Source of the DNA: a virus
Taxonomy: Duplodnaviria; Caudoviricetes
Direction: 5' to 3' (one strand)
IMG/VR virus record: IMGVR_UViG_3300036783_000194
Coordinates: 1 to 36,846 of that record
Length of the DNA stretch: 36,846 nt
Below the pieces are notes generated by a model that worked only from the letters and a program-made list of their open reading frames with translations, ran no database searches and was not told the DNA's origin. Shown here piece after piece: positions 1 to 36,719 of the stretch (positions are counted from its first letter, which is position 1; each line of letters begins with the position of its first letter). Both the position numbers and the translations under genes were made by a program.

Positions 1-127
1 CGGCCGGCGTGCTCGCGGCGCTTATCCTCGATGTCTGTTTAGTACTTGTAACCAACTCTTTAGGAGCTATATACATGGATTCGATCACCGGACAACAGAA
101 CCCGGCGCAAAGGCAAAAGCGACACCG
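1..127. repeat. Terminal direct repeat, copy 1 (identical to 36720-36846); circular-assembly overlap
   Basis: First 127 nt match the last 127 nt exactly. 127 is a common assembler k-mer size. Confidence 0.95.
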
Positions 128-563
128 GGACAACCTCATCACGATTCAAGAGAACCTCGTAAACCAGCTAAGGGACATCAACGCGGGCCTCGAGACGCTA
201 CAGCAACAACATCCAACGCTCGACCTGGCGGGGCTCTTTGGCTCGGTGCATGCGCTCGACTCGAATCATAGGGCGGTACTCGACCTGGCGAAAGAAGCGG
301 CCGGCGTACCCTCTGACGAGGTTCCGGCGCCTCCGCGCTTGATCAACGTCTCGACTCTGCCGGCGGGCGAAGCGGCGCCGCGGCCGTTTACGCATATCTC
401 GATCGACCAAACCGAACAACCGGCGGGGAACAATCCGGCGCTGAATCCGGGCTCGGTGCGGCATCACTCGCCGGATCTGGCGCCGGCGGATGAGGGGACG
501 CAACCGAACACGCAACCGAACAGGAATACCATTGTCACGGACACCGGAACGGCGCAAGGGTAA
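75..563 (+). CDS. Hypothetical protein (helical N-half, Pro/Gln-rich disordered C-half)
   Basis: ATG at 75 preceded by TAGGAG (61-66), within ORF 9..563. Confidence 0.7.
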   Translation: MDSITGQQNPAQRQKRHRDNLITIQENLVNQLRDINAGLETLQQQHPTLDLAGLFGSVHALDSNHRAVLDLAKEAAGVPSDEVPAPPRLINVSTLPAGEAAPRPFTHISIDQTEQPAGNNPALNPGSVRHHSPDLAPADEGTQPNTQPNRNTIVTDTGTAQG

Positions 564-849
564 CGAGAAAAGGGCCTCCGCGCGGGCACTAAAAAGAAAC
601 CGTCAAAATTCCCGTCGCGCCTCTGAACGGCCAAAGTTGGATTCTTCTCTCGAACTGAGGCGCGATCTTGACGGCAATGTTCATACTCCTAGCGGCTTCC
701 TGCCGGCCGAAGCGTACAAGAAAACGCGCGCGGCGAATCCCGCGGCCGGCCTCCCGGAGTACGATTCAATCCCTCTCCTCTAGCGCGGTGGGCGTCCTGT
801 GACTACCAAATTTCATAAGTCGCTGAATCCGGGCGCGTTCCGCGCTTTG

Positions 850-871
850 AAATTGTCTGTACAGGTTTTTT
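850..871. repeat. 22-bp site AAATTGTCTGTACAGGTTTTTT, identical to 31373-31394; its 16-bp core is inverted at 31110-31125
   Basis: Direct sequence comparison. Confidence 0.9.
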
Positions 872-972
872 GGTACTCAAAAGTAGCTCACCGGGCGAGC
901 TACTTCTTACGCGCTTTCTTCGCCTCATAGCGCCGGCGCGCGCTATTGCATAATGCTGAATAGTGCGCGATC

Positions 973-1737
973 GTGACGCGCCGGTTTATTGGCACAATGG
1001 CCTCAAACGCGAACCTCGCTCGAGCTCGAGACGTTCTCCCGCGCAACCTGCCGCGGCTGGCGGAGCTCCTCAATGAACGCCGGCGCCGGGCGCGCAACAA
1101 ATTTGCGCGCATGTATCCGGATCATGGGCCGTATCGCCGGGAGCTCTACGCAAAACACATGCAAGTCGTGGAAGCAACACGCCTCGCGAATCAAGTTGCA
1201 TTCATCGCTGGAAACAAGGTCGGAAAGTCGGAGCTCGGCTGCTATTGCCTGGCGGCCTGGCTCACTGGCTTATTCCCGGCGTGGTGGCACGGCCGGCGCT
1301 TCGCGGGTCCGATTACGGGCTGGATCGCGGGCGAGAAAAACTCCGTCGTTCGCGACTCACTCCAACTGAAGTTATTAGGGCCGCTAAACGATCTCGGAAC
1401 CGGCTTGATACCTGGAGACCATATTTTCCGGGCGACGCGAAAGAGCGGGCTCTCGGACGCGATAGACACGCTAACAATACGGCACGTCTCCGGCGGGCTC
1501 TCCTCGCTGCGCTTCAAAAGCTACGAAGAGGGCCGGCGCGCGTTTCAGGCTACCGATATCGACGTGCTCATGCTCGATGAAGAACCTCCGATGGATGTAT
1601 GGGTCGAAGGGCTCATGCGCTTGATGGTACGGCAAGGGCTCGCGCTCTTGACGTTCACGCCTCTATCGGGCTGGTCGGAGGTAGTATCTGAGTTTCTCGA
1701 CGCGGCGGATCTGTTACATCCGCCGGCAGAAGTTTAG
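973..1737 (+). CDS. terL: Terminase large subunit, ATPase half (P22 gp2-like); start may be ATG 997
   Basis: Walker A-like AGNKVGKS, FKSYEEGR, Walker B VLMLDEEPP, motif III TFTPL. Confidence 0.92.
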   Translation: MTRRFIGTMASNANLARARDVLPRNLPRLAELLNERRRRARNKFARMYPDHGPYRRELYAKHMQVVEATRLANQVAFIAGNKVGKSELGCYCLAAWLTGLFPAWWHGRRFAGPITGWIAGEKNSVVRDSLQLKLLGPLNDLGTGLIPGDHIFRATRKSGLSDAIDTLTIRHVSGGLSSLRFKSYEEGRRAFQATDIDVLMLDEEPPMDVWVEGLMRLMVRQGLALLTFTPLSGWSEVVSEFLDAADLLHPPAEV

Positions 1738-1912
1738 AAAACTCCATTGCAGTGTCGACCATATCGGAAACGCATCCGGGCGCGTGGCCTCCGCCTCTGA
1801 TGGCCTCAAATTCAAGCTCAACCTCGCGCGTGGCGCCGCGCTTCACTAACCAAAAGACTTTTTTCCATTCCTCCGCGGTCATTGAAACCGCGATCATTTC
1901 CGGTTTATCCAT
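1655..1912 (-). CDS. Small antisense ORF (85 aa) occupying the gap between the two terminase halves
   Basis: ATG start at the edge of the insertion; protein-like sequence MDKPEMIAVSMTAEEWKKVFWLVKRG; only a weak GAAGG upstream. Confidence 0.45.
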   Translation of the reverse strand: MDKPEMIAVSMTAEEWKKVFWLVKRGATREVELEFEAIRGGGHAPGCVSDMVDTAMEFSKLLPADVTDPPRRETQILPPTSPIEA

Positions 1913-2646
1913 TGCCTTCGAAAATTACCATTCAAGCCGGCTGGGACGATGTTCCGCACCTGAGCGAAGCGTACAAGCGGGAGATGCTCGACGCCATTCC
2001 TCCGTATCAACGCGACGCGCGTTCAAAGGGTATTCCGGACATGGGCGCCGGCGCCGTGTATCCACTCGCGCCGGAAGATTACACGACGGACAGAAAACCG
2101 GATCCGCTCTGGCCGCGCGCCTATGGCCTTGATGTGGGCTGGGAGCAAACGGCCGCTACGTGGTTAGCCTGGGATCCGGAGGCCTCTTTCGGGCTCGTGT
2201 ATGACGAATACTTTCGAGGGCAAGCGGAACCGGCGATACATGCGGCCGCGATTCGCGCGAAGGGCGACTGGATACCGGGCGCGATTGATCCGGCCTCCGC
2301 GGGCTCGAGTCAAAAGGACGGCGAGAAATTGATTGAGACTTACGTTGAGCTCGGCCTCGTGCTCACGCCGGCGGATAACGCGGTAACGGCCGGGACGACG
2401 TTGATTTATAACCTGCTCTCGACGGGGCAATTAAAGATTGCGCGGCATTGTGTCAACTTACTCAAGCAAATGAAAATGTATCGACGCGACGAACGCGGCC
2501 GCATCGTTAAGAAAAACGATCACGGGCCGGATGCGCTCCGCTATGGGTGCATGACGGGGCCGAAGATTCGTAGAACACGGCCGGCGAAGATCTCCGTTGA
2601 TAACTGGCTCCGGCCGGATCTCAACGCCGGCGGCTGGGCTGGATAG
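1882..2646 (+). CDS. terL: Terminase large subunit, nuclease half; likely start TTG 1912 (MPSKITIQAGWDDVPHL)
   Basis: WDDVPHL, RSKGIP, YGLDVGW (RNase H-fold Asp) and KKNDHGPDALRY motifs typical of P22-type TerL C-termini. Confidence 0.9.
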   Translation: MKPRSFPVYPLPSKITIQAGWDDVPHLSEAYKREMLDAIPPYQRDARSKGIPDMGAGAVYPLAPEDYTTDRKPDPLWPRAYGLDVGWEQTAATWLAWDPEASFGLVYDEYFRGQAEPAIHAAAIRAKGDWIPGAIDPASAGSSQKDGEKLIETYVELGLVLTPADNAVTAGTTLIYNLLSTGQLKIARHCVNLLKQMKMYRRDERGRIVKKNDHGPDALRYGCMTGPKIRRTRPAKISVDNWLRPDLNAGGWAG

Positions 2647-2652
2647 GCTCTC

Positions 2653-4776
2653 ATGGCGAATGAAAGTTATAACTCCGGGTTAGTCGAGGAACTCGATGAC
2701 CTCGCGCTTATGCGGAAGCGGTTCCAGCAGTCCTCCGACGCTGAGACGCGCGATCGGGACTCGGCGCGCGATTGCATCGAATTCTACTTTGGCGAACAGT
2801 GGGCGGCCGATATCCTCCATCAGCGACACGATAGGCCGTCATTCACTCTGAATAAGCTGCCGGCCATCATGCGGCAAATTCTCAACGAAGAGTTGCAGAA
2901 TCCGCCGGCTATCGAAGTATCTCCGGATGGTGAGGGCGCGGATGAGGAAACCGCGGAAGCGCAACAAGGGCTCGCGCGCCACGTCGAACTACACTCAAAC
3001 GCCGAATTCGCATACTCGAACGCGTTTCTTTATATGGTGCTCGGGGGCTTCGGTTCCTGGCGCGTGGTGCACGATTATCTACCGCGGAGTTTCGATCAGG
3101 AGCTCTACATCAAGCCGATTTATAACCCGTTCTCGGTGTACTGGGACCCGGCCGCGATCGAACCGGATAAGAGCGACGCGCGCTTTTGTTTCGTGGTGCT
3201 CGACTTCGGGGTGGATGAGTTCAAAGCGCAATATCCGAACTCTGATCTGGTCGGAATGAAAAATTTCGAGGGCATCGGGAACCGGGCGCCGGGCTGGGTA
3301 TGGCGGGACGGCTGCCGGGTGGTCGAGTATTTTTACGTCGAGACTGAAGACGCTACGCTCGTGAGACTCACTGACGGGCGCATTGTTTACGACGATGAAA
3401 TCCCGAAGGGCGCGCGCATCATGACGGATGAGGACGGCGCGCCGGTCGAACGGCCGGATACTCGCCGGCGCGTGTACCTGGCTCACTCTAACGGCGTCGA
3501 ATGGCTACGCAAACCGGAGGCGCTTCCGGTGCCTCAAATTCCGATCGTTACCGTCCTCGGGGAGCGGCTCTGGATCGAAAGCGAAGGGATGTTCAGAGTT
3601 AAGGGCGCGGTTTTCGATCTGGTCGAAGCGCAAAAAATGTTTAACTTCAACTCGAGCGCGATCGCCGAAACGATGGCGCTCGGCGCGCGCGCGAACTGGC
3701 TCGCGACGGTTGAGCAGATTGAACCGTTTATGGAATTGTGGCGCTCGGCGAACACGCGTAACATTTCCGTGCTGCCTTATCACAACATTCCAGGGGTGAA
3801 CGCGCCGGTAAAGATCGCGAGCGAACCTCCGATACAGGGGATGAGCGCGGTACGCATGCAGTCGGAACAAGATTTGCGCTCGATCTCTGGCGTCTATGAC
3901 GCGGCGACGGCCGGCGGCGGGCTCACGCAACCGGAAAGCGGGAAAGCGGTTCTCGCGCGCCGCTGGCAAACTTCGACGGGTAACGTTCACTGGACAAAGC
4001 ACCTGGCGGTCGGAGTGAAGCGGACGGCTGATATTCTGCTCGACTACTTCCCGCATATCTACGACACCGGGCGCGTGATGCGGATACTCGGCAAGGATCG
4101 GCAACAAAAACAAATCATGGTGCACGCCGGCCGGCCGGAAACCGTTCCGCCGATGCTGCCGGATGGGGTCTCCGATGTCATCGACCTGACGGCGGGCCGC
4201 TATTCCTCAACGGTGAGCATTAACAAGAACTACGACACACAACAGCAGGAATCCGTTCAATTGATGCTCTCGCTTATCGAGGTGAATCCGGCGCTCGCGC
4301 CGCTACTCGCGGATTTGGTCATCGGTGAAATGGACTTTCCGAATAAACAAGCGTTCGTCGATCGACTCCAGCGGGCGCTTCCTCCGGGCCTCCAAGATCA
4401 AAAGAACCCGCAAGACCCGAACACGCTCGCGGCGACGAACTCCCAACTGATGCAACAAAATCAGAAGCTCATGGCGCAAGTTCAGCAACTCTCGCAGATG
4501 ATACAGACCAAATCAGTCGAGGGGCAATCGCGCGAACGCATCGAGAAAATGAAGCTAATGGCTACTCAGATTTCGAGCGCGGCGCGCCTCGAACAAGAGC
4601 GGGTCAAAGCACAAGCGGGGATTCTAACGCGGGCCGCGGATCAACACTTTACCGCGGTGCATGATCACGCGATGAGCACGAAAGAGCATTTACACGATGT
4701 CATGCTGGCGGGCCATCAACGGGCGCTGAATCCGCCGGCGCCTCCGCCTCCGGCCGCGGCCGAAGTAACGCAGTAA
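2653..4776 (+). CDS. Portal protein, P22-like
   Basis: 707 aa directly after TerL; FYFGEQW, PSFTLNKL, VYWDP..DKSDARFCF and ESGKAVLAR motifs; C-terminal coiled coil. Confidence 0.92.
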   Translation: MANESYNSGLVEELDDLALMRKRFQQSSDAETRDRDSARDCIEFYFGEQWAADILHQRHDRPSFTLNKLPAIMRQILNEELQNPPAIEVSPDGEGADEETAEAQQGLARHVELHSNAEFAYSNAFLYMVLGGFGSWRVVHDYLPRSFDQELYIKPIYNPFSVYWDPAAIEPDKSDARFCFVVLDFGVDEFKAQYPNSDLVGMKNFEGIGNRAPGWVWRDGCRVVEYFYVETEDATLVRLTDGRIVYDDEIPKGARIMTDEDGAPVERPDTRRRVYLAHSNGVEWLRKPEALPVPQIPIVTVLGERLWIESEGMFRVKGAVFDLVEAQKMFNFNSSAIAETMALGARANWLATVEQIEPFMELWRSANTRNISVLPYHNIPGVNAPVKIASEPPIQGMSAVRMQSEQDLRSISGVYDAATAGGGLTQPESGKAVLARRWQTSTGNVHWTKHLAVGVKRTADILLDYFPHIYDTGRVMRILGKDRQQKQIMVHAGRPETVPPMLPDGVSDVIDLTAGRYSSTVSINKNYDTQQQESVQLMLSLIEVNPALAPLLADLVIGEMDFPNKQAFVDRLQRALPPGLQDQKNPQDPNTLAATNSQLMQQNQKLMAQVQQLSQMIQTKSVEGQSRERIEKMKLMATQISSAARLEQERVKAQAGILTRAADQHFTAVHDHAMSTKEHLHDVMLAGHQRALNPPAPPPPAAAEVTQ

Positions 4777-4855
4777 ACAACGATCTTCACGCGTAAGCGT
4801 AAGGGCCTCCCGGCGGCCTCCAATGCCGGCGATACCCCAACACTCGGGAGAAACT

Positions 4856-5851
4856 ATGGCAGATAACAACGGAGCTCCGGCACTTGACGCGCCGGAGCTC
4901 TCACAGTCGGACTATCGCGCGCTGCGCGAAGGTCGCACGATTGCGGTAAAAACCTCCGAAGCTCCGCCTCCGGCTCCTCCGCCGGCGGATGCTGAAAGCG
5001 GCGCCGGCTCGGAACCGGCGGATGATCTCGAGGGGCAAGGCGGCTCCGACGAAGGTAAAGACGGACAGCAGCAACAAGGCGAGAAGAAACCAGCGGGCGC
5101 GCAACAAAAGCGCGGCCTGGTGGATGAGGTTATCAAGCTCAGAAGAGAGAATCGTGATCTAAAGACGCGCGGCGCGGCGCCTCCGCCTCCGCTACCAGAG
5201 CAACCGAAGCCGGCGCCTCAAGGCGCGCCGGGCGAAGCTGCTCGAGCGGGTCGGCTCGAGGAACCGGATATATCCAAATTCACCGATTACGACAAGTTCA
5301 ATCGGGAGTTTATCCGGGTGCAGGTGCATAACGCGCAACTCGACGCGGCCGAAGCAAGGGCGGCCGCGGATAAGGCGAGCGCGGAGCAAACGGCGCTCCA
5401 GCAACGCATCGGAACCTGGCAAGGGCGCCTCCGCGCGGCCGCGGTTGAGTTCCCGGACTTCGAAGCGGTCGCGTTCCAGACTACGCTTCCGGTCTCGGCG
5501 ACGATGGGCGACGCCATCATGGGCTCGGAGCTCGGGCCAAAGGTGCTCTATCATCTCGGCTCGCATCCGGACGAAGCGGCGCGGATCTCGAAACTCTCAC
5601 CAATTGATCAAGTGCGCGAAATTGGAAAGCTCGAACACTCACTCTCACAAGCTGCCGCGGCCTTGGCCTCCGGCGAAGAAGAAGAAGAAGAAGTACCGCC
5701 TCCCTCTGCAAAATCAGCCATCAGCAAAGCTCCGCCTCCGGTTCCACGGCCGGCGGGCGCCGCGAAAGCGGGAGCTCCTTCGATGAAAAGTCTCGAGGGT
5801 ATCTCGCAAGCGGAGTACCGCGCGCTGCGCGAATCCGGCCGGCTGCGCTGA
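4856..5851 (+). CDS. Scaffolding protein
   Basis: Between portal and coat; acidic disordered N-part, GPKVLYHLGSHPDEA..IGKLE core, SKAPPP and C-terminal EYRALR helix; ATG 4856 after GGGAGA. Confidence 0.85.
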   Translation: MADNNGAPALDAPELSQSDYRALREGRTIAVKTSEAPPPAPPPADAESGAGSEPADDLEGQGGSDEGKDGQQQQGEKKPAGAQQKRGLVDEVIKLRRENRDLKTRGAAPPPPLPEQPKPAPQGAPGEAARAGRLEEPDISKFTDYDKFNREFIRVQVHNAQLDAAEARAAADKASAEQTALQQRIGTWQGRLRAAAVEFPDFEAVAFQTTLPVSATMGDAIMGSELGPKVLYHLGSHPDEAARISKLSPIDQVREIGKLEHSLSQAAAALASGEEEEEEVPPPSAKSAISKAPPPVPRPAGAAKAGAPSMKSLEGISQAEYRALRESGRLR

Positions 5852-5888
5852 GTAACGGCCGCCATAGAAGCGGCAACCCTAAAACCAC

Positions 5889-7115
5889 TTGGCAAATACA
5901 ATCCTTACTCCGACAGCGATCACGCGCGAAGCGTTGATGCTGTTGGAGAACAGCCTCACCTTCACAAAATACGTTCGGCGCGCTTACGATGATAAGTTCG
6001 CTATCTCGGGCGCCAAAATTGGCGCGACTATCAACCTTCGGATTCCGCCTGTTTTCGCGGTCACGAAAGGGCCTAACCTCTCCATCCAGAACTACACGGA
6101 AACGCAGTTTCCGCTAACACTCAATCAACAGGCTCACATCGACGTGAGCTTTTCCTCGGCCGAACTCACGCTCTCAATTCAGGACTTCTCTGATCGCGTT
6201 CTCAAGCCTCAAATTGCACAACTCGCGAACCAAATAGATCAGGATGGGCTCGCTCAGTTCGTCAATGTTTATAAGTCCATCGGCGTGTCGGGCACACCTA
6301 ACACGACGTTTGCGCCGTTCTTGGCTGCCGGCGTCGCGCTCGATAACTCGGCCACTCCGCGCGATGGCGAACGCTCTATCGTGCTCTCGCCGCAAGGTCA
6401 AGCCGATGCAGTTGGCGGGCAATTTACAACGTCTTTCAACGATCAAGACACCATCGCCAAACAATACTTAAACGGCACAATGGGCCGCGCGCTGGGTTTC
6501 CGCTGGTCAATGGATCAGAACGTTAATTCATTGACGGTGGGGCCAATGGGCGGGGCGCCTGTCGCCGCGGGCGCGGGACAAACGGGCGCCACGCTAGCGA
6601 CTTCCGCATGGACGGCGGCCGCGGCCTCGCGGCTGCTCGGCGGCGAAACATTCACTCTTCCACTGGTCTATGAGTGGAATCCGATTGCAAAACAGTCAAC
6701 CGGCAAATTGCAAAGTTTCACGGTAACGGGGCCGGTCTCGAGCGATGGCGCGGGCCTGGCTACGGTTCCCATTTCGCCTTCTATCATCACTTCCGGCACT
6801 TCGCAAACGGTGACAAACTCACCGGCGAATAACGCCGCGCTTACCTTCACATCGGGCGCGGCCGGCGCAATTACACCTGTAGGGCTCGCCTTCCATTCGA
6901 ACGCGTTCGCCTTCGCAACGGTTGACCTTGAGGACGTGAGCAAATACGGCGCCTGGGGCGCGCGCGTCTCTGATGATCAACTCGGCGTTTCTATGCGCGT
7001 AGCTCGCCAGTACGCGATCGGCTCGGATACCGTTCCGTGTCGCATTGATGTTCTCTACGGATGGGGCACGCCGCGGCCGCAAATGGCTTGCCGTGTCCTG
7101 GGCTCGAACACTTAG
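5889..7115 (+). CDS. Major capsid protein, P22 coat (gp5) family
   Basis: MANTILTPTAITREAL, KIGATINLRIP, ELTLSIQDFSDRVLKP, MDQNV and RIDVLYGW motifs; position after scaffold. Confidence 0.93.
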   Translation: MANTILTPTAITREALMLLENSLTFTKYVRRAYDDKFAISGAKIGATINLRIPPVFAVTKGPNLSIQNYTETQFPLTLNQQAHIDVSFSSAELTLSIQDFSDRVLKPQIAQLANQIDQDGLAQFVNVYKSIGVSGTPNTTFAPFLAAGVALDNSATPRDGERSIVLSPQGQADAVGGQFTTSFNDQDTIAKQYLNGTMGRALGFRWSMDQNVNSLTVGPMGGAPVAAGAGQTGATLATSAWTAAAASRLLGGETFTLPLVYEWNPIAKQSTGKLQSFTVTGPVSSDGAGLATVPISPSIITSGTSQTVTNSPANNAALTFTSGAAGAITPVGLAFHSNAFAFATVDLEDVSKYGAWGARVSDDQLGVSMRVARQYAIGSDTVPCRIDVLYGWGTPRPQMACRVLGSNT

Positions 7116-7123
7116 TAACTAAC

Positions 7124-7150
7124 GAGGGGCTCGCCGGCGGCGGGCCTCTC
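7124..7150 (+). terminator. 12-bp GC-rich hairpin after the coat gene (terminator or mRNA stabiliser)
   Basis: GAGGGGCTCGCC-ggc-GGCGGGCCTCTC with two G-U pairs; only a weak U-tract follows. Confidence 0.55.
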
Positions 7151-7181
7151 ACGTTTCACAATTCAAAAGAGGAGTAAAAGC

Positions 7182-7517
7182 ATGGCTGATTTTCAGGAAT
7201 ACCCGAAAATGCTGTATCACAAGAAAAAAGGAAACCGCTCGGCGAAGTCGGCGGAAGAGGAAGCCACGCTAAAGAGGCAGGGCTACACGACGGAGGCGCC
7301 GAAGCAATTCGAGGAAGAGGCGGAGGAAAACGGCGAGAACGGCGACGATCTGACGCGTGAACCTGCGCTCGTCAGTGAAATTGATCAGGAGAAAACGCGG
7401 CTCGCCGGCAATCAAGGCGCGAAGGATCCGAAGGAACTGCTCGGCGAGAATCCCGATGAACACGCCGAAGACCCGGAACCAGCGGCGCGGCCGGGAACAG
7501 CAAAGAAGGGTAAGTAA
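7182..7517 (+). CDS. Small charged protein after coat gene (MADFQEYPKMLYH)
   Basis: Strong SD GAGGAG; position in the head module. Confidence 0.75.
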   Translation: MADFQEYPKMLYHKKKGNRSAKSAEEEATLKRQGYTTEAPKQFEEEAEENGENGDDLTREPALVSEIDQEKTRLAGNQGAKDPKELLGENPDEHAEDPEPAARPGTAKKGK

Positions 7518-7522
7518 ACGCG

Positions 7523-8254
7523 ATGGGTGCACCGATTACCGTACTCGATCTCATCACGGAAACGCTCTCGATCTTTGGGGAATACACTCCGGGGGAACCT
7601 CTCGACGCGGCTTCGGTGCAATCTCTTTTGTTCACCTTAAACGGCGCCGTCGATGGCATGGGGGCGGAGTCGCTCGCGATCTTCGCTAACTCCGTCCTTC
7701 CGTTCACGACGGCCGCCGGCAAGCAAAACTATACCCTCGGGCCGGATCCGGGAAATGATTGGATCACGGCGGCCGCGGCGCCGTCCGAAATTTCGCGCGT
7801 CGGCGTCGTACTGAACGGGGCGGAGCTCCCGGTTAAGCTGCTGAACGCGGATGAGTGGGCGCTCCAAGCTCTAAAGACGCTGCAATCTACGCTTGTTTCC
7901 GCGGTATGGCTACAGTACGGGCCGGTCTCGCATACTCTGACGTTCTGGCCTATCCCTACGCTCGGGCTGGCCGTGAACCTCTACGCCGCGCAACAAACGC
8001 CGCGGTTTGCGGCGCTCACTGACTCGGTAATTCTTCCGCCGGGCTATCAAGAATTTCTCACTTACGATCTGGTGATTAAGAGCGCGTCGAAGTTCGGGGC
8101 GGCGCTTCCGGACTGGGTTCCTCCGGCCTGGCGCGAAGCGCGAACGCGGATTAAGGAATACAATTATCAGGCGCTCGAGTCGCGCTCGGAGGATGCGCTT
8201 CTCACTTCCAGGGGCCGCGGCGCGGCTTTGCTGCGCTTCTACACTGGCGATTAA
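7523..8254 (+). CDS. Head-tail adaptor (P22 gp4-like position)
   Basis: Position; TVLDLITETL..GE, LTFWPIP and LPPGYQEFL motifs. Confidence 0.7.
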   Translation: MGAPITVLDLITETLSIFGEYTPGEPLDAASVQSLLFTLNGAVDGMGAESLAIFANSVLPFTTAAGKQNYTLGPDPGNDWITAAAAPSEISRVGVVLNGAELPVKLLNADEWALQALKTLQSTLVSAVWLQYGPVSHTLTFWPIPTLGLAVNLYAAQQTPRFAALTDSVILPPGYQEFLTYDLVIKSASKFGAALPDWVPPAWREARTRIKEYNYQALESRSEDALLTSRGRGAALLRFYTGD

Positions 8255-9715
8255 ATGCGATTCAAGGGCTTTATCGGGCCGTCGTACCAGACGCCGGCGG
8301 TACAGGTGGACGCGCAACGAAGCGTGAACCTGTACCCGGAGATGATCGCGGGCGACGGGGGCGCCTCCGAAGAGTCGGTGCTCGTTCGCACACCGGGCCT
8401 GTTACTTGTCAACGATCAACTCGGCGCCGGCCACGGCCGCGCGCTGTTCGCGGTCAATGGTCGATTGTTTGCGCTCGTCGCTGATCAGTTTTTCGAGATT
8501 AAGCAAACGGGCGCCGTCGCTCCGTATAACTACGTTGGTTATCCCTTGGGCTCGATCGCGGGCGGAGTCACGGAACCGGCGCTCATCAAAACCAACGGGG
8601 TGCAACTGCTCATACTCTCCACTGGCGCCGCATGGCTGTATGATCTCCGCTCCAATGTTTTAAGCGGGCTCGGCTACCTGGGCTTCAATTGGTCGAATTA
8701 TGGCCTGGCCGTGGTCGACACTTACTTTGTAGCCTCGAGCGCAAACTCGACTCAGTTTCAAATTTCGGCGCCTCTCAATGGCCTAAGCTGGACGGCGATC
8801 GACTTCGGGAGTACTCAAGAGGCCGATAACATCGTGGCGCTCGAGGAGCTCCACGGCTATCTGTGGATCTTCGGCTCTAACAGTATCGTCGTGTATCAAG
8901 ACACCGGAAACTCGAGTTTTCCCTTTCAACGCGTTCCCGGTTCCAAAGTCGAAATGGGGCTCGGCGCCGCGCTCTCGCTCGTGAAACTGGACAATTCGAT
9001 TTTCTGGCTCGGTGCGAGCTCGCGCGGGCCGGCGGTGATCTATCGCGCGGATGGGTTTCTTCCCTCGCGAATCTCGACTCACGCGGTCGAGGCCGCGCTT
9101 CAAGGCTATAGCAGGGTAGATGATGCGACGGCTTACGCCTATGAGGAGCGCGGGCATCTGTTCTATCGGCTCGACCTTCCCACGGCCGGCGCGACGTGGT
9201 GTTATGACGTGGCGACAAAGGCATGGCATGAGCGCGGTTTATGGAGCTCGGCCGCGGGCGCTTTCGGGATCCATCCGGCGCGCTTTCATGCGTTCTGCTT
9301 CGGCCTCCATTTTGTTCTCGACGGGGCGACGGGCAAACTATACGATCAGTCGCTCACTCACTATGACGACGCCGGCGCGCCTCTGCGCTGGATGCGGCGC
9401 GCGCCTCATATTGACGACAAGAGCGGCCGGCGGCGGATCTTTTACCGGCGCTTTGAGCTCGTGATGAATACCGGATGGAACGCTCCGCAAGCCTGGGCGC
9501 CGCAAGTCTTCCTCCGCTGGTCGAACGACGGCGGGGCTACCTGGGGCGCGGATCACGGCGCCGATGCGGGCTCGCTCGGTGAGTATAGGCGCCGTGTGAT
9601 CTGGCGTCAACTCGGCGCGGCGCGTTCGCGGGTGTTCGAGGTCTCGGGCTCGGATCCGCTTCCGGATTTGGTTCTGATCGGGGCGGAGCTCCTCGCGGAG
9701 CAGGGGATGAGTTAA
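8255..9715 (+). CDS. Tail hub / DNA stabilisation protein (P22 gp10-like)
   Basis: GFIGPSY, NLYPE, TPGL, RISTHAVE, TWCYD, LRWSNDGGATW and WRQLG..RSRVFEV motifs. Confidence 0.88.
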   Translation: MRFKGFIGPSYQTPAVQVDAQRSVNLYPEMIAGDGGASEESVLVRTPGLLLVNDQLGAGHGRALFAVNGRLFALVADQFFEIKQTGAVAPYNYVGYPLGSIAGGVTEPALIKTNGVQLLILSTGAAWLYDLRSNVLSGLGYLGFNWSNYGLAVVDTYFVASSANSTQFQISAPLNGLSWTAIDFGSTQEADNIVALEELHGYLWIFGSNSIVVYQDTGNSSFPFQRVPGSKVEMGLGAALSLVKLDNSIFWLGASSRGPAVIYRADGFLPSRISTHAVEAALQGYSRVDDATAYAYEERGHLFYRLDLPTAGATWCYDVATKAWHERGLWSSAAGAFGIHPARFHAFCFGLHFVLDGATGKLYDQSLTHYDDAGAPLRWMRRAPHIDDKSGRRRIFYRRFELVMNTGWNAPQAWAPQVFLRWSNDGGATWGADHGADAGSLGEYRRRVIWRQLGAARSRVFEVSGSDPLPDLVLIGAELLAEQGMS

Positions 9716-11064: not shown

Positions 11065-11087
11065 TCACTTAGAAAGGGCTTCTCTCG

Positions 11088-13450: not shown

Positions 13451-13452
13451 CG

Positions 13453-15408: not shown

Positions 15409-15410
15409 CT

Positions 15411-19292: not shown

Positions 19293-19326
19293 CAGCAAAC
19301 CTCCTCCTCCTCCCTCACACAAAATC

Positions 19327-28092: not shown

Positions 28093-28610
28093 ATGATGAG
28101 AGCTCCGCGGCGTCCGTCCTTCGTCGCGTGCAAGCGGCCGTCCTTGATGGCCTGGCTCAACTTCCGCGCGGAGTATCCGGAGTACACGGCGGCCTCCTCG
28201 AGTGTGAGGTTCAATTTCAGGTGAAGCGGCACGGCCGGCGCCGGCGCGATCGCCGCGGCCTCCGGCGCCGGTAACATGCGCTGGCTGGTGAGCTCGCGGA
28301 GCGCGTCGAGGAAACGCTCGATGTGGTCTCCGGTAAGCGGCGGGGTGGTCATCGTGAACGCGTCCGGATGAAATTGGAGCGGGGCGGCCGCGGGCATGTT
28401 CACCGGGAACGGCTTCGGCTCCTGGCTCTCGAGTAGCTTTTTCAAGTCGTCCGGATTAACGACGTTCTCCGGCTTGCGGCCGGCGCGCGCGCGCTTCCGG
28501 AACTCAAGTTTTCCGCGCTCGTTGGCTCGAATAACGGAACGTCTCGACGTGCGAAGCTGTACGGCGGCCTGGTCGACGGAGGGCCACTCGGAAAGGTCTA
28601 TCTCGGGCAT
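28065..28610 (-). CDS. DNA-binding protein with two excisionase-like HTH domains
   Basis: N-terminal SVDQAAVQLRTSRRSV..G.L; C-terminal LTLEEAAVYSGYS..L..AIKDGRL..IIRRASLE. Confidence 0.78.
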   Translation of the reverse strand: MPEIDLSEWPSVDQAAVQLRTSRRSVIRANERGKLEFRKRARAGRKPENVVNPDDLKKLLESQEPKPFPVNMPAAAPLQFHPDAFTMTTPPLTGDHIERFLDALRELTSQRMLPAPEAAAIAPAPAVPLHLKLNLTLEEAAVYSGYSARKLSQAIKDGRLHATKDGRRGALIIRRASLESL

Positions 28611-28636
28611 CGTGACAATGATGCAATGTCACGATG
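28608..28636. promoter_or_regulatory. 10-bp perfect inverted repeat over the HTH gene start (candidate autoregulatory operator)
   Basis: CATCGTGACA-9nt-TGTCACGATG; half-site ATTGTCACGAT at 27317-27327. Confidence 0.6.
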
Positions 28637-28658
28637 TCCCGCACAATAGAAAACTGTA

Positions 28659-28985
28659 CTACTGAACGCGCGGCAAGTGCTCGGCCGGCGGCGCCGCGGG
28701 TTCGCGCTCCACGTCTCCGGGCGCGTCTTCGACGTGATCAAGCGCAACGGGTAACGATTCCGGAAAGAGGCGCTTAATCTCCGGCTCGCATAAGAGGCGG
28801 CCGATGGCCTCGGCGGGGATCGCTTCGCCGGCCGGGATCGGGGTTGTACAGGCTTCGCAGATATGCGGGTTTCTGCTCATGACTACGGCCACATCTGCGG
28901 CCTCGCTCGCGCTCGGGCGGTTGATGATCGCGACTCCTAGAAACTCGCCGGTCTTGTAACACGCGACACTGACCCAGTACAACAT
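28659..28985 (-). CDS. Hypothetical protein (MLYWVSVACYKTGEFLGVAII)
   Basis: ATG 28985 within ORF 28659..29051. Confidence 0.6.
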   Translation of the reverse strand: MLYWVSVACYKTGEFLGVAIINRPSASEAADVAVVMSRNPHICEACTTPIPAGEAIPAEAIGRLLCEPEIKRLFPESLPVALDHVEDAPGDVEREPAAPPAEHLPRVQ

Positions 28986-28990
28986 GCGCT

Positions 28991-29173
28991 TTAGGCGGCC
29001 GCGGGCGCGCTCGCTTCGGGCGGCGCCGTCATCGTTCCGCACTTCGGGCAAGCGTGCGGCTCTGGTTTCGCGTACACGTACACTAGCTCGCCGCGGCGGG
29101 TCTCAAACGTTCCGCCGGGCCTGACCTGGAAGCAGTGAAAGCACGCCGGGCACATATAGACGGGCTCTATCAT
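28991..29173 (-). CDS. Small zinc-ribbon protein (CPAC..CPKC)
   Basis: ATG 29173 coupled to the upstream stop; two CxxC pairs. Confidence 0.6.
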   Translation of the reverse strand: MIEPVYMCPACFHCFQVRPGGTFETRRGELVYVYAKPEPHACPKCGTMTAPPEASAPAAA

Positions 29174-29445
29174 TTCGGATCGAACGCGGCCGCGTCCGCG
29201 GTGGCGAATAGGCTCGCTTGCGCCGGCGGATCGAACACGGCGGGCGCCTCGCCTGGTCTCAAAACCTGCTCGGTGCACTTCCCGCGGCATTTCGGGCAAG
29301 TGATGTACCGCGTTGAATCCTCCGGAACCTCTCCGGTTCCGTGACAATAGCGACAATCGCGGTTTACGGTGTGGGTCTCTGCTGGCAGTACGCGCGCCAC
29401 TCTCTCAGAGAATACTCTTTCTCGGGCGCCTCTGTGCGAATCCAA
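29170..29445 (-). CDS. DnaJ-type zinc-finger mini protein (CRYCHGTG..CPKCRG); start uncertain
   Basis: CxxCxGxG motif; 5' part overlaps the upstream gene. Confidence 0.5.
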   Translation of the reverse strand: MDSHRGARERVFSERVARVLPAETHTVNRDCRYCHGTGEVPEDSTRYITCPKCRGKCTEQVLRPGEAPAVFDPPAQASLFATADAAAFDPK

Positions 29446-29597
29446 CGTAAGAGCTCCTCGATTGGTACAGAAGCCTCTTCCGCTATGGTTATTAGGCTTT
29501 GCGCGCGTTCCTCGAGCTCGGCGCGGTCGCTGTGTGGGAGTTCGTCAATGAGGGCGCTCAGAGCGCGTTTTAGCGCGAAATCCCGTAATTCGAGCAT
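29364..29597 (-). CDS. Hypothetical helical protein
   Basis: SD AAGGA upstream; 77 aa. Confidence 0.6.
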   Translation of the reverse strand: MLELRDFALKRALSALIDELPHSDRAELEERAQSLITIAEEASVPIEELLRWIRTEAPEKEYSLREWRAYCQQRPTP

Positions 29598-29767: not shown

Positions 29768-30130
29768 ATGAAGCGTCGCAAGTCGCCGGAGGATCCGGAA
29801 TCGCGGCGGAAATTGGCGGAGTTCGCGCTCGAGTTTCGGGAGCGGATCCGGGAATTAAAACTAGCGCGTGATTACGTGCTCAAACACAAGCGTAGAGACC
29901 AAAGTTCTAAAGCTATCCGGAGGCGTTTCCAAGCAACGGAACAGAAGATGCGGCTCGAGTACGCGAAAACGCGGCGCACGTTCGAGAGTCTCGATGGCTT
30001 CCGCGCGGAAGCGGGTCTGCGGCTACTGAAGGAAATGGGTATCCCGCGGCCGCATGATATGAACGGCCGGCCGTATAGTGGCGAAGAAATTTGGCGCGAA
30101 CTCGGGAAAGCGTTGGGCGTCGGCTCTTAG
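29768..30130 (+). CDS. Basic hypothetical protein (MKRRKSPEDP)
   Basis: ATG 29768 in ORF 29669..30130; start uncertain. Confidence 0.5.
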   Translation: MKRRKSPEDPESRRKLAEFALEFRERIRELKLARDYVLKHKRRDQSSKAIRRRFQATEQKMRLEYAKTRRTFESLDGFRAEAGLRLLKEMGIPRPHDMNGRPYSGEEIWRELGKALGVGS

Positions 30131-31812
30131 CTGCCGGCGGCGCGGCGCTTCGACTCGAGAACGCGCCGGAGTTTCTCAATCCGGGCGCGCCGTTCGCGTT
30201 CCGGGCCTTCCGGGTGCGCCGCGATGTACTCCACGGCCGCGACTAGCTCCGCTGCGAGTAGCTCGCGGATTCCCGCAATTTTCTTTTTCAATACATAGCG
30301 GGCCGGTCGATCGTCTGCCGGCGTCTCGGTGAGTTGGGCCTCTAGCCTGGCGAGCTCGTTTTCCGGCGGCTCCGGCTGGTAGGGCGCCGGCGCGTCTGCT
30401 CCCAGGTGCGCGCGGAGCTCGGCCGCGTCGCGTCGCCATTCGTCAATCTGCGGGTGGTCCGGTGTTTCGGCTATAAAACGCTCTAGGCTGGCGAGTTTCT
30501 CCGCGGGGGTGTCAAAGGGCTCGGGCACGTCCGCGGCGGGCGTCTGCGCCGCTGTGCGCGCAAGATAGGGCCGATTTAACGCAATCCACGCCGGTAAGTC
30601 GGCCTGGGCGAACTTCAGCAACGCCGGCGGGCCGTCGATCGCGTACCCTTTGCGGATCTTCTCTTCCGTCTTGTCGAGTAGGAAGCGCGCCGCGGCGATC
30701 TGGCTAATTCCGTGCTCCGGTGCGAGTTTTACAAACTGGCTCCGGAGTGTGGGGTTGAGGGGTTTACAGAACAGCTTTTCGACATAAGCCACGGCCGGGC
30801 CGTCGTTCACTGCGGCCGCTGGCGTGCTCTCCCCGCATTCAACAGGAAGGGGGTTCGCTGGTGTCGTGTCATCGGCTGCTGGTGTTCCGTCTTCCTGGGC
30901 TTCCGCTACTACTGCGGCCGCGTCTTCGTCAGTGAGTGAGTCCTCGCAACTGAAACCGGCCGGCGCCTCTGGCTCTCCTGCACTTACTCTGTTCTCTTCT
31001 CTGTCCTCTGGTGAATAAGGATGCGAAACGTGTACGGTGTCGCTTTCGACGGTGTACGGCGCCGTTTGCATTGCCTGTACGAGTTGCTCGTCGGCCGCGG
31101 CGTAAATTTCCTGTACAGACAATTTCGGCGTAATCAACTTTACAATTCGCGCCGTGTTTGCTGCCTCATCGTCTGCGGCTTTTTGCCGGCGGAGAACGAT
31201 TCCCTCTTGGGCTAGAACCTCATACAAGAGCTCCATCAGCAACTCGCGGGCGCCGAAAATGGCATCTCTAACGTACTGCTTTTCGAGTTCGCTTACCTTC
31301 TCGATCGCGAGGTGCACCCTGCGCTGGCTGATTTCTGGAAGTCGTTCAATTTGAACGACAATGTACCGCGGCAAATTGTCTGTACAGGTTTTTTTGTGGA
31401 TACCCGTTTCTTCTAATTCGCTTTTCTTTCGCCACGGCTGAACGGTGCCATTTAGCCATAGCTTTCCGTCCTTGTCTTTGGTTACGAGGCTTTTCTCCTC
31501 GAGCTCTTTCCAGACGCGCCATGCGGCCGGCGCATCCCATCCGAGTTGGTCCGCGGCATCCGACAAGCGGAGCGGCCGCTTCCGCTCGTCCGCGGCGTAT
31601 GGAGTGCGGCCGCATCGCTTCGGCCGGAGGCAACTCGAGCGCAACCAAGCGAGCATCCGATGGGCTCGCGGCGTGAGTTGGAGCTCCTCATCTAAAAACG
31701 CCTCGTACTGATCCGGCGGGATGGGGTCGTATCCGCGCTCGCGGCTGCCTCCCATCGCGACGATGAGCGCGAGGTTCTGGTCTTTTATCGGCGCGGTCGC
31801 GGCCGCGCTCAT
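30127..31812 (-). CDS. Replication-initiator-like protein with N-terminal winged HTH
   Basis: LRLSDAADQLGW..AWRVWKELEEKSLV wHTH pattern, then a low-complexity linker holding repeated GTACA motifs (lambda O-like layout); SD GGGAGG. Confidence 0.6.
   Translation of the reverse strand: MSAAATAPIKDQNLALIVAMGGSRERGYDPIPPDQYEAFLDEELQLTPRAHRMLAWLRSSCLRPKRCGRTPYAADERKRPLRLSDAADQLGWDAPAAWRVWKELEEKSLVTKDKDGKLWLNGTVQPWRKKSELEETGIHKKTCTDNLPRYIVVQIERLPEISQRRVHLAIEKVSELEKQYVRDAIFGARELLMELLYEVLAQEGIVLRRQKAADDEAANTARIVKLITPKLSVQEIYAAADEQLVQAMQTAPYTVESDTVHVSHPYSPEDREENRVSAGEPEAPAGFSCEDSLTDEDAAAVVAEAQEDGTPAADDTTPANPLPVECGESTPAAAVNDGPAVAYVEKLFCKPLNPTLRSQFVKLAPEHGISQIAAARFLLDKTEEKIRKGYAIDGPPALLKFAQADLPAWIALNRPYLARTAAQTPAADVPEPFDTPAEKLASLERFIAETPDHPQIDEWRRDAAELRAHLGADAPAPYQPEPPENELARLEAQLTETPADDRPARYVLKKKIAGIRELLAAELVAAVEYIAAHPEGPERERRARIEKLRRVLESKRRAAGS
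31031..31394. repeat. Iteron-like TGTAC cluster within the rep gene (candidate origin), including a 16-bp inverted pair
   Basis: TGTAC at 31031, 31053, 31076, 31112, 31381; CCTGTACAGACAATTT (31110-31125) is the reverse complement of 31373-31388. Confidence 0.55.
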
Positions 31813-32312: not shown

Positions 32313-32642
32313 TTAGTTCCGGCTGGCGCGGCGCTCGGCGATGATGGCGGCCTGGGTCGCAAGTTGGGCGGCCTCCTGGTGCTTGAGCGCGGGTAAGAGC
32401 TCGGCGAGTTTGCGGTTCTCGATGGTCGCCACTTCGAAGCTCCACTGATCGCGCGGCGCTCGGCAAAGCTCACACCAGGGATTCATTCCGCCGGCCGCGA
32501 TCGCTTCTTCAATTCCTGCCTTGAGTCCGTCGACGGCGCCGGCCGCGGTGCCTGGCGGTTCCTCGCCGGCGCCGGCCATGATGCAATGACGCGCGGGACA
32601 AAGACACTGGACGAGGTGCACGCGCGGCGCGGGCTCGCTCAT
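32313..32642 (-). CDS. Hypothetical Cys-containing protein (QCLCPARHC..NPWCELC)
   Basis: ATGA-coupled to the HNH gene. Confidence 0.65.
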   Translation of the reverse strand: MSEPAPRVHLVQCLCPARHCIMAGAGEEPPGTAAGAVDGLKAGIEEAIAAGGMNPWCELCRAPRDQWSFEVATIENRKLAELLPALKHQEAAQLATQAAIIAERRASRN

Positions 32643-33085
32643 GCGCTGGCCACTCCAAGAAACTGGCGGCCGTCATCGAATAGCGCCGGCTGCTCGGCGG
32701 TCTCGAGTTGTCCGCAAAAATCGGACAACTGCAAACACAATTGCTCGGCTATACCGGGATGGGCCTCGCGCCACAATTGCCGGAGGAAATCCGGAAACGC
32801 GAAGCTCGGGTACTTGGTCCGGTGCAAGCGCGTGTGACACGCGCGCCGGAGTGTGATCAACCAGCGGGCCTGATCGACGCGCCGGCGGTGATGTACGAGT
32901 AAATCCTCGATCGCGCCGCAACATTGACACCGGAAACCGTCGCGCTCGAGAACGTCTCCGCGCTGGCCTCCGAATTTCTCGCGGCTGAGACGCTCGCGCC
33001 GGTTGCAGGTGCTACAGCGTCCGTTGCTTTGCATCTGTGCTTGGCCGCACGCACACCATAGCGCGCTTTGTTGAGTCTCGAGCAT
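32639..33085 (-). CDS. HNH endonuclease-like protein, apparently degenerate
   Basis: VLERDGFRCQCCG..LLVHH..WLITLRRACHTRLH; the usual NL.TLC reads WL.TLR. Confidence 0.75.
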   Translation of the reverse strand: MLETQQSALWCACGQAQMQSNGRCSTCNRRERLSREKFGGQRGDVLERDGFRCQCCGAIEDLLVHHRRRVDQARWLITLRRACHTRLHRTKYPSFAFPDFLRQLWREAHPGIAEQLCLQLSDFCGQLETAEQPALFDDGRQFLGVASA

Positions 33086-34660: not shown

Positions 34661-34727
34661 GGGATGGCTGTTTGCCGGCGGTTCCTGGGACTGGCGACGC
34701 CCGCGGCTGCGCTGAAACCTGCTCTAA

Positions 34728-35222
34728 ATGCTTACTTGGTTCGCTCTCCAGGTCCGACACGGCAACCGGGAGCGGCGCGTGCAGGGGCAATTGCGGGAAC
34801 TGGCGATTGAGGAATTTCTTCCGCTGTACACGGTCCAGAGTAAATGGAGCGATCGCATCAAAACGATGGAACGGCCGTTATTTCCTGGCTACCTGTTCGC
34901 GCGGGTGGATCCGGAGGCGGGCGACGTGGTGAAGCTGCTCGAGCTCCGGCCGCATATTCTACTCTTACCTTCAAACCTGGCGCCGGAGGCGGTCGCCGAT
35001 GCGGAAGTGGATACCATCGCGAAGCTCTGCGCCTCGGCGCTTCCCCTGCTGCCGGCCGAATATAAGCGCGGGCAAGCGGTCAAGATTCAACGCGGCGCGC
35101 TCGCCGGCGTCGAGGGCATCGTGTCAAAAGTGCGGACTCATTACCGCCTGGTTGTGAACGTCGAGATTTTCCATCGCGCCGTCGAGGTCGAACTCGACGC
35201 GGAAGCGGTCGCGGGGCTCTAA
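34728..35222 (+). CDS. NusG paralogue, UpxY/RfaH-like antiterminator
   Basis: WFALQVR..ERRV, EEFLPL...KWSDRIK..ERPLFPGYLF (NGN domain); GQAVKIQRGALAGVEG (KOW). Confidence 0.9.
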   Translation: MLTWFALQVRHGNRERRVQGQLRELAIEEFLPLYTVQSKWSDRIKTMERPLFPGYLFARVDPEAGDVVKLLELRPHILLLPSNLAPEAVADAEVDTIAKLCASALPLLPAEYKRGQAVKIQRGALAGVEGIVSKVRTHYRLVVNVEIFHRAVEVELDAEAVAGL

Positions 35223-35782
35223 TGCCGGCGAAACGGCGCCGCGGGCTGCCGAAGAAAGGGGCTTTCCTGGCTGCCTACGTCCGAACGGCCTCGATCACGA
35301 AAGCGGCGCGCGCGGCGCGCATTGAGCGGGCTCTCCATTATCGCTGGCTGGTGGATGATCCGGAGTATCCGGCGCAATTCGCGGCCGCACAACGCGAAGC
35401 GGCGCAAATTCTCGAGGATGAGGCGATACGGCGCGCGAACGAGGGGGTACTTGAACCTCTCACGTACAAGGGGCGATTCCAGTACAAAACGCGGCCGAAG
35501 CGCGGCGCGGATGGCGCGATCGTTCACGAGGGCGGCCGGCCGGTCTTGGAAGAGTACGGCGCGCCTCTGGCCATTCGGAAGTACTCGGACGGCATGATGA
35601 TGTTCTTACTCCGCGGCTTCCTGCCGGCGAAGTACCGCGAAAATTCCTCGGTCGAACTCTCCGGGCCGGCCGGCGGATCCATTCCGGTCGCGGATCCGCG
35701 GCTAGCGGAGCTCACAGATGAGGAGCTCGAGACGCTCGTAACACTCTCGCGGAAGCTCGAACCTGAAACGCCGGTATCATGA
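35222..35782 (+). CDS. terS: Terminase small subunit
   Basis: FLAAY..TASITKAA..A.I.R..HYRW...DPEY, LEDEAIRRA.EG, KYSD..MFLL..PAKYR and ELSGPAGG motifs. Confidence 0.8.
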   Translation: MPAKRRRGLPKKGAFLAAYVRTASITKAARAARIERALHYRWLVDDPEYPAQFAAAQREAAQILEDEAIRRANEGVLEPLTYKGRFQYKTRPKRGADGAIVHEGGRPVLEEYGAPLAIRKYSDGMMMFLLRGFLPAKYRENSSVELSGPAGGSIPVADPRLAELTDEELETLVTLSRKLEPETPVS

Positions 35783-36342
35783 CTCCTCGCCTCCGGGCGC
35801 TTATTGAGTACGCGCTCACGGCCGCGATCGTGAGTATGTGCGCCGGCGTAATGTGCGCGGTCGCCATAACGTTCGATGTGCACTCGGCGCGGCTCGAACA
35901 AGAGCGGGCGGATGTCGAATCGCGGCGCGAAACTGGCCGCCGGCTCGATCAACTGCTCTGGAAGGTAGATACTGCGCTCGAGATAGGCGCCGCGGCGCGG
36001 CTCGATCTCGGGAACCTGCTCACGCGGTTACGCGCGCAAGTGAAGCAATCCGCGGACTCGAGCGCGGCCTCCTCGAAAACGCAGACACAAGCGGCGACGG
36101 TCGCGGTTACAAAAGCTCTCGACACGACGACGCGGGCGATTCAAGCGGTGGGCGACGCGCCGAATAAGACGCCGGAAGAAACGCCGGCGCCGGCCGCGGA
36201 CCGGCCTGTAACGGTCAACGTTCCGCCTCCTACCGTGATTTCGCCTCCGGCCGCGGCGCCGCGGGTGCAGGTGCAAGAGCGGCCGCCGGAACGTCGCCGG
36301 CGCTGGTATACGTTCCTCTGGCCTGGCAACTGGCGGCGCTAA
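35779..36342 (+). CDS. Membrane-anchored coiled-coil protein with Pro-rich tail (possible spanin-like)
   Basis: N-terminal TM segment followed by helical and Pro-rich regions. Confidence 0.5.
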   Translation: MTPRLRALIEYALTAAIVSMCAGVMCAVAITFDVHSARLEQERADVESRRETGRRLDQLLWKVDTALEIGAAARLDLGNLLTRLRAQVKQSADSSAASSKTQTQAATVAVTKALDTTTRAIQAVGDAPNKTPEETPAPAADRPVTVNVPPPTVISPPAAAPRVQVQERPPERRRRWYTFLWPGNWRR

Positions 36343-36627
36343 ATGGCAGATGAAAAAACGCCGTCGCTCGGCCTGTGGGTGGAATGGAGTCTAAAAGTCG
36401 GGCCTCTGCTCGCTTCCGGCGTCCTGTTCTTCTTCACGCTGTACAGCAATCAGACGGCGATGATCAAACACGACGGCGAAGTTGATAAGCGGCTAGCGGA
36501 GCTCGAGCGCGCGGCGAACATGCAAGATCGGGAGCTCACAAACCGGCTCGCCAAAATTGACGCGGCGCTTTCTGAGCTCAATCACGATTTGCAGTTTTAC
36601 CAGCAAACCCGGAGTAATGGGAGATGA
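36343..36627 (+). CDS. Small TM plus coiled-coil protein (possible holin-like)
   Basis: VGPLLASGVLFFFTLY hydrophobic segment then heptads. Confidence 0.5.
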   Translation: MADEKTPSLGLWVEWSLKVGPLLASGVLFFFTLYSNQTAMIKHDGEVDKRLAELERAANMQDRELTNRLAKIDAALSELNHDLQFYQQTRSNGR

Positions 36628-36719
36628 TCTGGCACATTGGCCGCGGCTGTGCGGCCGGCGTCAAGTTCCGCGGCCGCGGCCGGCGGCGCGCTTGGATGAG
36701 TGTGAAATTGTCGAGGATC

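Follow-up and report, generated by a model that had tools for sequence, protein, structure and literature searches.

Why should a phage genome keep whole families of short asymmetric words off one of its strands? The question is raised by IMG/VR record IMGVR_UViG_3300036783_000194, whose sequence (the window, 36,846 nt) is the complete circular genome of an uncultured phage from a soil metagenome, with 36,719 bp of unique sequence, 61% G+C and a direct terminal repeat of 127 bp in the record. PHROGs/Pfam profiles recovered the P22-type portal (PF16510), coat (PF11651), head closure and ejection proteins, placing the phage among the P22-like podophages, which it resembles in its virion module, genome size, recombinase and lambdoid-like early region. 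A preliminary description, made from the sequence alone, had claimed that GGGC is abundant on the plus strand while GCCC is nearly absent, and had offered co-orientation of restriction sites or a replication bias as the cause. We found this polarity to be real and extreme, and we consider it fairly likely that it is explained by selection to co-orient the target sites of restriction enzymes that depend on inverted pairs.

Short words are lost from the plus strand

The plus strand carries 431 copies of GGGC and 7 of GCCC, the latter at exactly the positions that had been picked out by eye. Hundreds of GCCC had been anticipated, and an order-0 model indeed expects 292, with 133 and 52 expected at order 1 and order 2. 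GGGC lies near its expectation (338, 395 and 372 at the three orders) whereas GCCC lies far below, indicating that the polarity is a loss from the plus strand. Because models of order 0 to order 2 all expect so many GCCC, we rejected G/C skew as the cause, including the mononucleotide skew that had been named as a possible refutation. Other asymmetries noticed by eye were recovered on counting: GGCTC/GAGCC, 159/4; CTCGG/CCGAG, 156/2; and CCTGG/CCAGG, 87/9. GGCTC and CTCGG stood as skews in their own right, but CCAGG did not stand as an independent hole, its 9 copies comparing with 8 expected at order 2, so that three-letter bias explains it.

For 48 five-letter words in all, the counts of the word and its reverse complement are at least 5-fold apart. 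The dinucleotides are already skewed (plus/minus, as for single words below: CC 1908/3532, the most skewed; AG 1419/2364), and words of 2 to 4 letters hold much of the signal. Words nearly confined to the minus strand, which we call hole words, include GCCC, CCCC (4/161), GAGCC, CAGCC, CCGAG, GCCAG, CAGGC, GACCG, CCACC, GCACC, CCCAG, CGCAG, AGACC, TAGAG and related words. Fifteen words, picked after the fact, had 67 sites on the plus strand vs. 1569 on the minus strand, with the same direction in 13 of 13 bins, so the claim that there is no switch point held. The holes are sharp. All four NGCCC and all four GCCCN words are near zero, indicating that the depleted unit is a 4-mer, and a single final base separates CCGAG (2/156) from CCGAA (62/68) and GCCAG (3/107) from GCCAC (30/29). 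GAGAG (13/82) and AGGAG (11/53) are depleted as well, and GGGCAG is missing from both strands. Among the 48 skewed 5-mers, 47 contain CC or AG or end in AC, vs. 46% of all 5-mers, which is the shape of Type III restriction sites written on the methylated strand.

Polarity follows the physical strand and overrides codon preference

We compared 23 plus-strand and 9 minus-strand genes, chosen by family hits and length. GCCC/GGGC counts on the plus strand were 3/311 in the plus-strand genes, 0/42 in the minus-strand genes and 4/78 in the remaining DNA, consistent with the earlier observation that the polarity persists through minus-strand blocks. Synonymous-codon shuffling gave expectations of 109.6 ± 7.0 GCCC for the plus genes and 13.4 ± 3.0 for the minus genes, where 3 and 0 were observed, whereas GGGC was close to its shuffled expectation in both (311 vs. 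279 and 42 vs. 45). Since the polarity holds in minus genes and survives the shuffle, codon usage was rejected as its cause, as had been argued before.

Codon choice instead follows the strand. Between plus and minus genes, the fraction of Gln codons that are CAA falls from 0.69 to 0.32, while GAC rises from 0.39 to 0.73 (Asp), AGC from 0.14 to 0.56 (Ser) and ACC from 0.15 to 0.41 (Thr). Plus-gene Ala codons that precede a C are GCC in 1 of 293 cases (mostly GCG, 217, and GCT, 66); those that precede a G are GCC in 160 of 489. We conclude that the loss follows the physical strand and concerns particular words, that it is brought about largely by synonymous codon choice, and that a clade of relatives has it as well (below).

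Genes that lie in opposite orientations provided a further view. The partial coat paralogue on the minus strand, 62% identical to the coat over residues 3–57, has 22 hole words and no reverse complements on its coding strand, vs. 5 and 7 over the first 112 codons of the coat gene. For the HNH and recombinase genes, words were counted stop to stop. In the HNH frame, hole words and complements stand at 17:2 and 23:5 in minus-strand copies and at 8:32 in relative G002, which has the frame on the plus strand. The recombinase has 2:23 and 4:22 on the plus strand and 11:11 in G002, where it is inverted, indicating an incomplete flip.

A clade of relatives shares the polarity

Five long relatives, with portals 55–75% identical, are polarized too, and in the same sense with respect to their portal and coat genes (GCCC/GGGC 5/170, 10/125, 42/301 in G002, 37/204 and 62/336 in G306); two short clade fragments are polarized more weakly (10/51 and 17/40). 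GCCC/CCCC is the top 4-mer skew in six of six long clade genomes. The common direction is probably inherited and hence no independent evidence. In contrast, no polarity was found in 18 distant P22-like genomes (portal 29–37% identical), whose GCCC skew reached at most 3.4-fold (48/164). Among loci of at least 10 kb, the largest 4-mer skew was at least 10-fold in 9 of 19 clade loci (a redundant set), 0 of 79 T7-like loci and 3 of 69 other loci, the controls being no random sample of phages; the largest of all, 57-fold, belongs to the present genome.

A correlation of 4-mer skews between plus and minus genes was rejected as a discriminator, two distant genomes also scoring 0.60 and 0.75 with automatic open reading frame (ORF) calls. 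A polymorphism check yielded too few variants from the contigs of one run. As separate observations, CTAC outnumbers GTAG 99 to 3 in the distant P22-like phage L030 (G316), and G002 (L067, L068) has 32 CAGCAG on the plus strand and 4 on the minus strand, against the general polarity of the clade, which may reflect Gln-Gln coding.

Hole words resemble the sites of orientation-dependent restriction enzymes

As a Type III set we took all 84 Type III rows of Table S4 of Blow 2016 (PMC4752239), which after removal of 12 duplicates and 2 palindromes left 70 motifs in methylated-strand orientation. Fifty-two of these are rarer on the plus strand, 16 are commoner and 2 are tied; at a threshold of at least 3-fold, 27 are rarer and 3 commoner. 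Letter shuffles averaged a log2 ratio of −0.50 (p = 0.001), and shuffles that held the last two letters in place averaged −0.80 (p = 0.008), compared to an observed mean of −1.20. The 35 plain 5-mer sites are depleted beyond an order-2 model on the plus strand (p = 0.005) but not on the minus strand (p = 0.60). The Type III list of Rusinov 2018 (PMC6286503; 172 rows), in which strand orientation is lost, was not used. Five of the six N4-methylcytosine (m4C) sites in Table 1 of Murray 2021 (PMC8259958) are at least 2-fold rarer on the plus strand: CGCCC 2/161, GAGCC 4/159, CACCGC 0/28, CACC 43/159 and CGCC 335/741. Type IIG motifs (54, from the first 58 of 133 rows of their source table, with 2 duplicates and 2 atypical entries dropped and ISP enzymes not marked separately) were rarer on the plus strand in 32 cases and commoner in 16, which is not beyond what their shared ending gives (p = 0.42 vs. 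last-two-letter shuffles).

Restriction pressure was also seen independently of the polarity, since six-base palindromes are missing (21 of 64, and 18 of the 56 with an expectation of at least 4) and both strands avoid three asymmetric hexamers (e.g., CAGCTC/GAGCTG, 1+0 vs. 25 expected). The palindrome loss resembles the Type II avoidance described in Rusinov 2018 (PMC6286503, in part).

The closest precedent is T7, whose asymmetric Type III sites, CAGCAG for EcoP15I and CATCAG for PstII (PMC3874151, Table 1), are confined to one strand. Counting on NC_001604 gave 0/36 and 0/34, both missing from the same strand, in agreement with the statement in the preliminary description that T7 keeps its EcoP15I sites in one orientation. 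T7 differs from the present genome in scale, with 6 rather than 48 five-letter words skewed at least 5-fold, and in breadth, since 37 Type III motifs are rarer and 31 commoner (AGACC 63/62) with no overall trend. T7 also reaches zero inverted sites where the present genome keeps a few, and all its genes lie on one strand, so that codon effects are inseparable there and separable here. In both genomes the words are purged from the strand that encodes the coat protein. A second likeness is to MANTIS and Type III systems in Pseudomonas phages (bioRxiv 10.64898/2026.09.23.753747), where hemimethylated asymmetric sites are depleted from one strand with graded orientation dependence. In the available parts of that preprint, known host sites are tested singly and MANTIS depletion is confined to virulent phages; its section 10 describes no purge of a whole word family with codon use flipped by gene direction, unlike the present case. 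In the literature, mostly openly accessible, we found no report of a genome-wide, multi-word strand purge.

Probable selection for co-orientation of target sites

Type III enzymes modify a single strand and require inverted pairs for cleavage; T7 escapes with 36 co-oriented sites (PMC3874151 and PMC12707154, as far as available). Under the explanation we favor, enzymes of the host would likewise methylate one strand and cleave the DNA only between sites in opposing orientation; these could be Type III enzymes, possibly also Type ISP or MANTIS-like systems. Host strains would carry many such specificities, of an N6-methyladenine type (words ending in AG or AC) and an m4C type (ending in CC). 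Cutting at mixed pairs, together with sub-words shared among sites, would push every word onto one common strand. Mixed pairs are cut jointly by EcoPI with EcoP15I (PMC3185417) and by LlaGI with LlaBIII (PMC3553963), as reported in the accessible text; both examples are close homologues, and cooperation across a wide range of enzymes is what we infer beyond them. Each minority-strand site lost would raise the odds of methylation winning, such that even incomplete purging would pay, and the graded orientation dependence of MANTIS fits incomplete purging here. Some listed hexamers have no inverted pair at all (e.g., CCGAGC, 0/82, and CACCGC). A new four-letter site, GCCC or SCCC, is predicted. 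The polarity works like the site co-orientation of T7 but is no strict case of it, as inverted pairs remain and the cognate enzyme is a prediction.

A bolder proposal would take the missing words as a negative image of the host methylome, with the GCCC/CCCC core betraying an undescribed, lineage-wide, orientation-sensing defense with a four-base site. We regard it as tentative and rather doubtful.

Several results weigh against selection for co-orientation. The Type III excess is gone when judged against an order-3 model (p = 0.28), making it inseparable from 4-mer bias, and the motifs overlap, which inflates the sign test. Some listed sites are reversed or flat (GGGATC 21/0, CTAC 77/31, CCTCC 79/28, CGAAT 53/37), as is the sixth m4C site, GAACT (28/36). 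GCCC is absent from the 84 Type III rows, and none of GCCC, CCCC, AGCC, GCCAG, CAGGC and GACCG was found as a complete site in the REBASE-derived list accompanying Rusinov 2018, a survey whose available part reports no systematic one-strand avoidance of Type I or III sites in cultured phages. Minority-strand 4- and 5-mers remain (GCCC 7, CGCCC 2, GAGCC 4, CCGAG 2), with minority GCCC sites rising to 42 in G002 and 62 in G306, so that inverted pairs are not reduced to zero, though phage T3, whose inverted pairs are few, is described as restricted (PMC12707154). Palindrome loss is equally strong in some unpolarized genomes (up to 26 of 64), five phage loci with a recombinase 53–67% identical have no polarity, and a candidate host genome (below) lacks a PF01555 methyltransferase. 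PstII and EcoP15I are not known to cooperate, which would weaken the mixed-pair step. The preliminary proposal of co-orientation against Type III enzymes thus gains from the 52 of 70 depleted sites and loses from the order-3 comparison and the missing GCCC entry, and we still only infer it.

Alternative explanations

A defense that attacks one physical strand, such as DarT-like ADP-ribosylation or a single-stranded DNA nuclease acting on the displaced strand of rolling-circle replication, or a one-strand phosphorothioate system (Ssp), would explain directly why all the words share a strand. Ssp is described as marking CC on one strand (PMC12707154, in part), CC being the most skewed dinucleotide here, and the likely O-type initiator would be compatible with a fixed displaced strand. 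We nevertheless consider such a defense unlikely: the holes would require a number of specificities with no relation to one another, the plus strand retains 1023 copies of CCG, and the orientation match of Type III sites would be a coincidence. Of the four TNTC words, which we take to be the DarT2 motif, one, TCTC, is rarer on the minus strand and three are not.

If one-way replication imposed a strand-specific mutation bias that depended on context, and no selection acted, there would be no switch point around the circle and the signal would lie largely in words of 2 to 4 letters; the graded polarity in relatives and the half-converted G002 recombinase resemble amelioration. This bias, the second cause offered in the preliminary description, proved a poor fit, and we think it quite improbable. 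CCCC and the pair GAGAG and AGGAG have no base in common on either strand, and a single damage chemistry therefore cannot produce both. Of 111 ancestral C at 4-fold sites, 21 became G, 10 became T and 7 became A on the branch of this genome (crude parsimony over 7 genes), with no excess of transitions. The AG skew depends on the 5′ neighbor (G statistic 204) and not on the 3′ neighbor (4), and a base three places off decides a hole, as in CCGAG vs. CCGAA. No deaminase or methyltransferase was found among the ORFs scanned, many of which had no hit at all.

A direction signal for a DNA translocase (KOPS/Chi-like, or for a packaging or entry motor), or avoidance of G-quadruplexes on one strand, would account for the uniform direction over the genome, which is the same relative to the coat gene in relatives, and for GGGG, with 161 copies on the plus strand vs. 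4 on the minus strand. We consider this very unlikely, because the signal is a loss and not a gain (GGGC being near its shuffled expectation), GGGCAG is missing from both strands, avoidance of G runs leaves CCGAG, GCCAG and GAGAG unexplained, and no skew of this kind is seen in 19 chromosome stretches from the candidate host group. An artifact of codon usage, base skew or assembly, to which the two thirds of the genome coding on the plus strand might point, can be practically dismissed in view of the minus-strand genes, the synonymous shuffle, the order models and Logan contigs of soil run X1 (possibly the source sample), which match long stretches of the genome with 0–1 differences.

Genome organization

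Features that bear on the polarity are collected in Table 1.

Table 1. Features of the circular phage genome and how each relates to the strand polarity
Feature	Coordinates	Strand	Evidence and remarks
Whole circular genome, word-depleted plus strand	1..36719	+	Word counts; terminal repeat
Packaging, head, tail and ejection module (terminase, portal, scaffold, coat, head closure, tail fiber)	973..21078	+	PHROGs/Pfam; polarity with plus-type codon use
Tyrosine recombinase, 211 aa	24951..25586	+	2 hole words vs. 23 reverse complements
Partial paralogue of coat N-terminus, inverted	26614..27042	-	Hole-word counts; sequence comparison
Minus-strand block, helix-turn-helix/excisionase-like and unknown genes	27327..29597	-	Physical-strand polarity kept
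Putative replication initiator, 561 aa (helix-turn-helix, lambda O-like neighbors)	30127..31812	-	Coding sense: 85 hole words vs. 7 reverse complements
HNH endonuclease gene	32639..33085	-	Word content flips in relative G002, where the gene is on the other strand

The 561-aa protein is likely a replication initiator, a lead that comes from Atlas neighbors. Other profile matches were to an exonuclease, a FliA/WhiG-like sigma-70-family factor (25683–26315, plus) and an UpxY/LoaP-like antiterminator (34728–35222, plus).

The large terminase is split into an ATPase frame (973–1737) and a nuclease frame (1882–2646), both on the plus strand. The split is at the same place in six of seven clade genomes examined, with spacers of varying length in which Rfam found no intron, and the gene is whole in G004; the Rfam scan gave no hits at all. 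The tail fiber gene contains a tandem duplication of 150 bp, 92% identical (9953–10265, plus). The 1293-aa product of a plus-strand gene (15411–19292) is likely ejected and has a weak ddrB-like ParB domain; its nearest Atlas clusters are ddrB-ParB polyvalent proteins, and it may have an anti-defense role. PADLOC returned only a Mad1-like helix-turn-helix match and weak nuclease matches. The recombinase consists of the catalytic domain only and is the size of FimB/FimE; at E 1e-20, 467 homologues were found. The enzyme may act as a resolvase instead of an integrase, and a temperate lifestyle is therefore not implied.

The coat paralogue has an added leader, presumably twin-arginine-like, and lacks about 35 internal residues; it is perhaps an assembly regulator or a decoy. 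In the minus-strand block, a direct repeat of 48 bp, 83% identical, lies at the starts of two genes (27837–27884 and 28045–28092, 208 bp apart). Adjoining the exonuclease is a clade-conserved 184-aa protein (22084–22638, plus) with a predicted OB-like N-terminal domain, weakly like single-stranded DNA-binding protein (SSB). In a search for a phage-encoded modifier, structures were predicted for two clade-core unknown proteins: this one, weakly SSB-like at a best E of 0.011, and a second without a match.

Candidate host

One relative was binned, as a 19-kb contig that may be misbinned, in a Ca. Velthaea metagenome-assembled genome (MAG; G001), whose phylum we take to be Eremiobacterota. PF01555 scores above the cut-off in 43 of 81 genomes of its order, and in G034 and G098 a Mod-sized hit adjoins a ResIII hit by coordinates. 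PF04851 was rejected as a marker, since it matched 61 of 61 genomes and all controls and is uninformative alone; nothing is concluded from the unpublished genomes in that set (G238, G133 and G335). A coat query hit 2 of the 301 genomes from the MAG's phylum (the contig of the MAG itself and one match of 28%), and a recombinase query found 0 of 401 genomes at E 1e-50. A 16.7 kb DNA search of the MAG gave no convincing match beyond the phage contig, tetranucleotide likeness to it is low (0.22), and sigma-factor homologues gave no useful host name. A sigma-factor scan found no viral loci.

Implications

One-strand site avoidance has so far been a T7 anecdote involving a couple of sites, and the large survey (PMC6286503, in its available part) found none that was systematic. 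New here is that it is genome-wide, overrides codon preference in both gene directions and is inherited across a clade, which makes this phage a case in which the shaping of genome-wide strand asymmetry by restriction enzymes can be tested. The predicted host methylation motifs (GCCC/SCCC, GCCAG, CAGGC, GACCG, CCGAG and GAGCC) could reveal the host from long-read soil methylomes, and co-orienting asymmetric sites suggests itself as a design rule for bringing DNA into soil bacteria that are hard to transform. If the missing words are truly a negative image of the host methylome, strand-locked holes in phage genomes would predict defense systems and their specificities without culture of the host.

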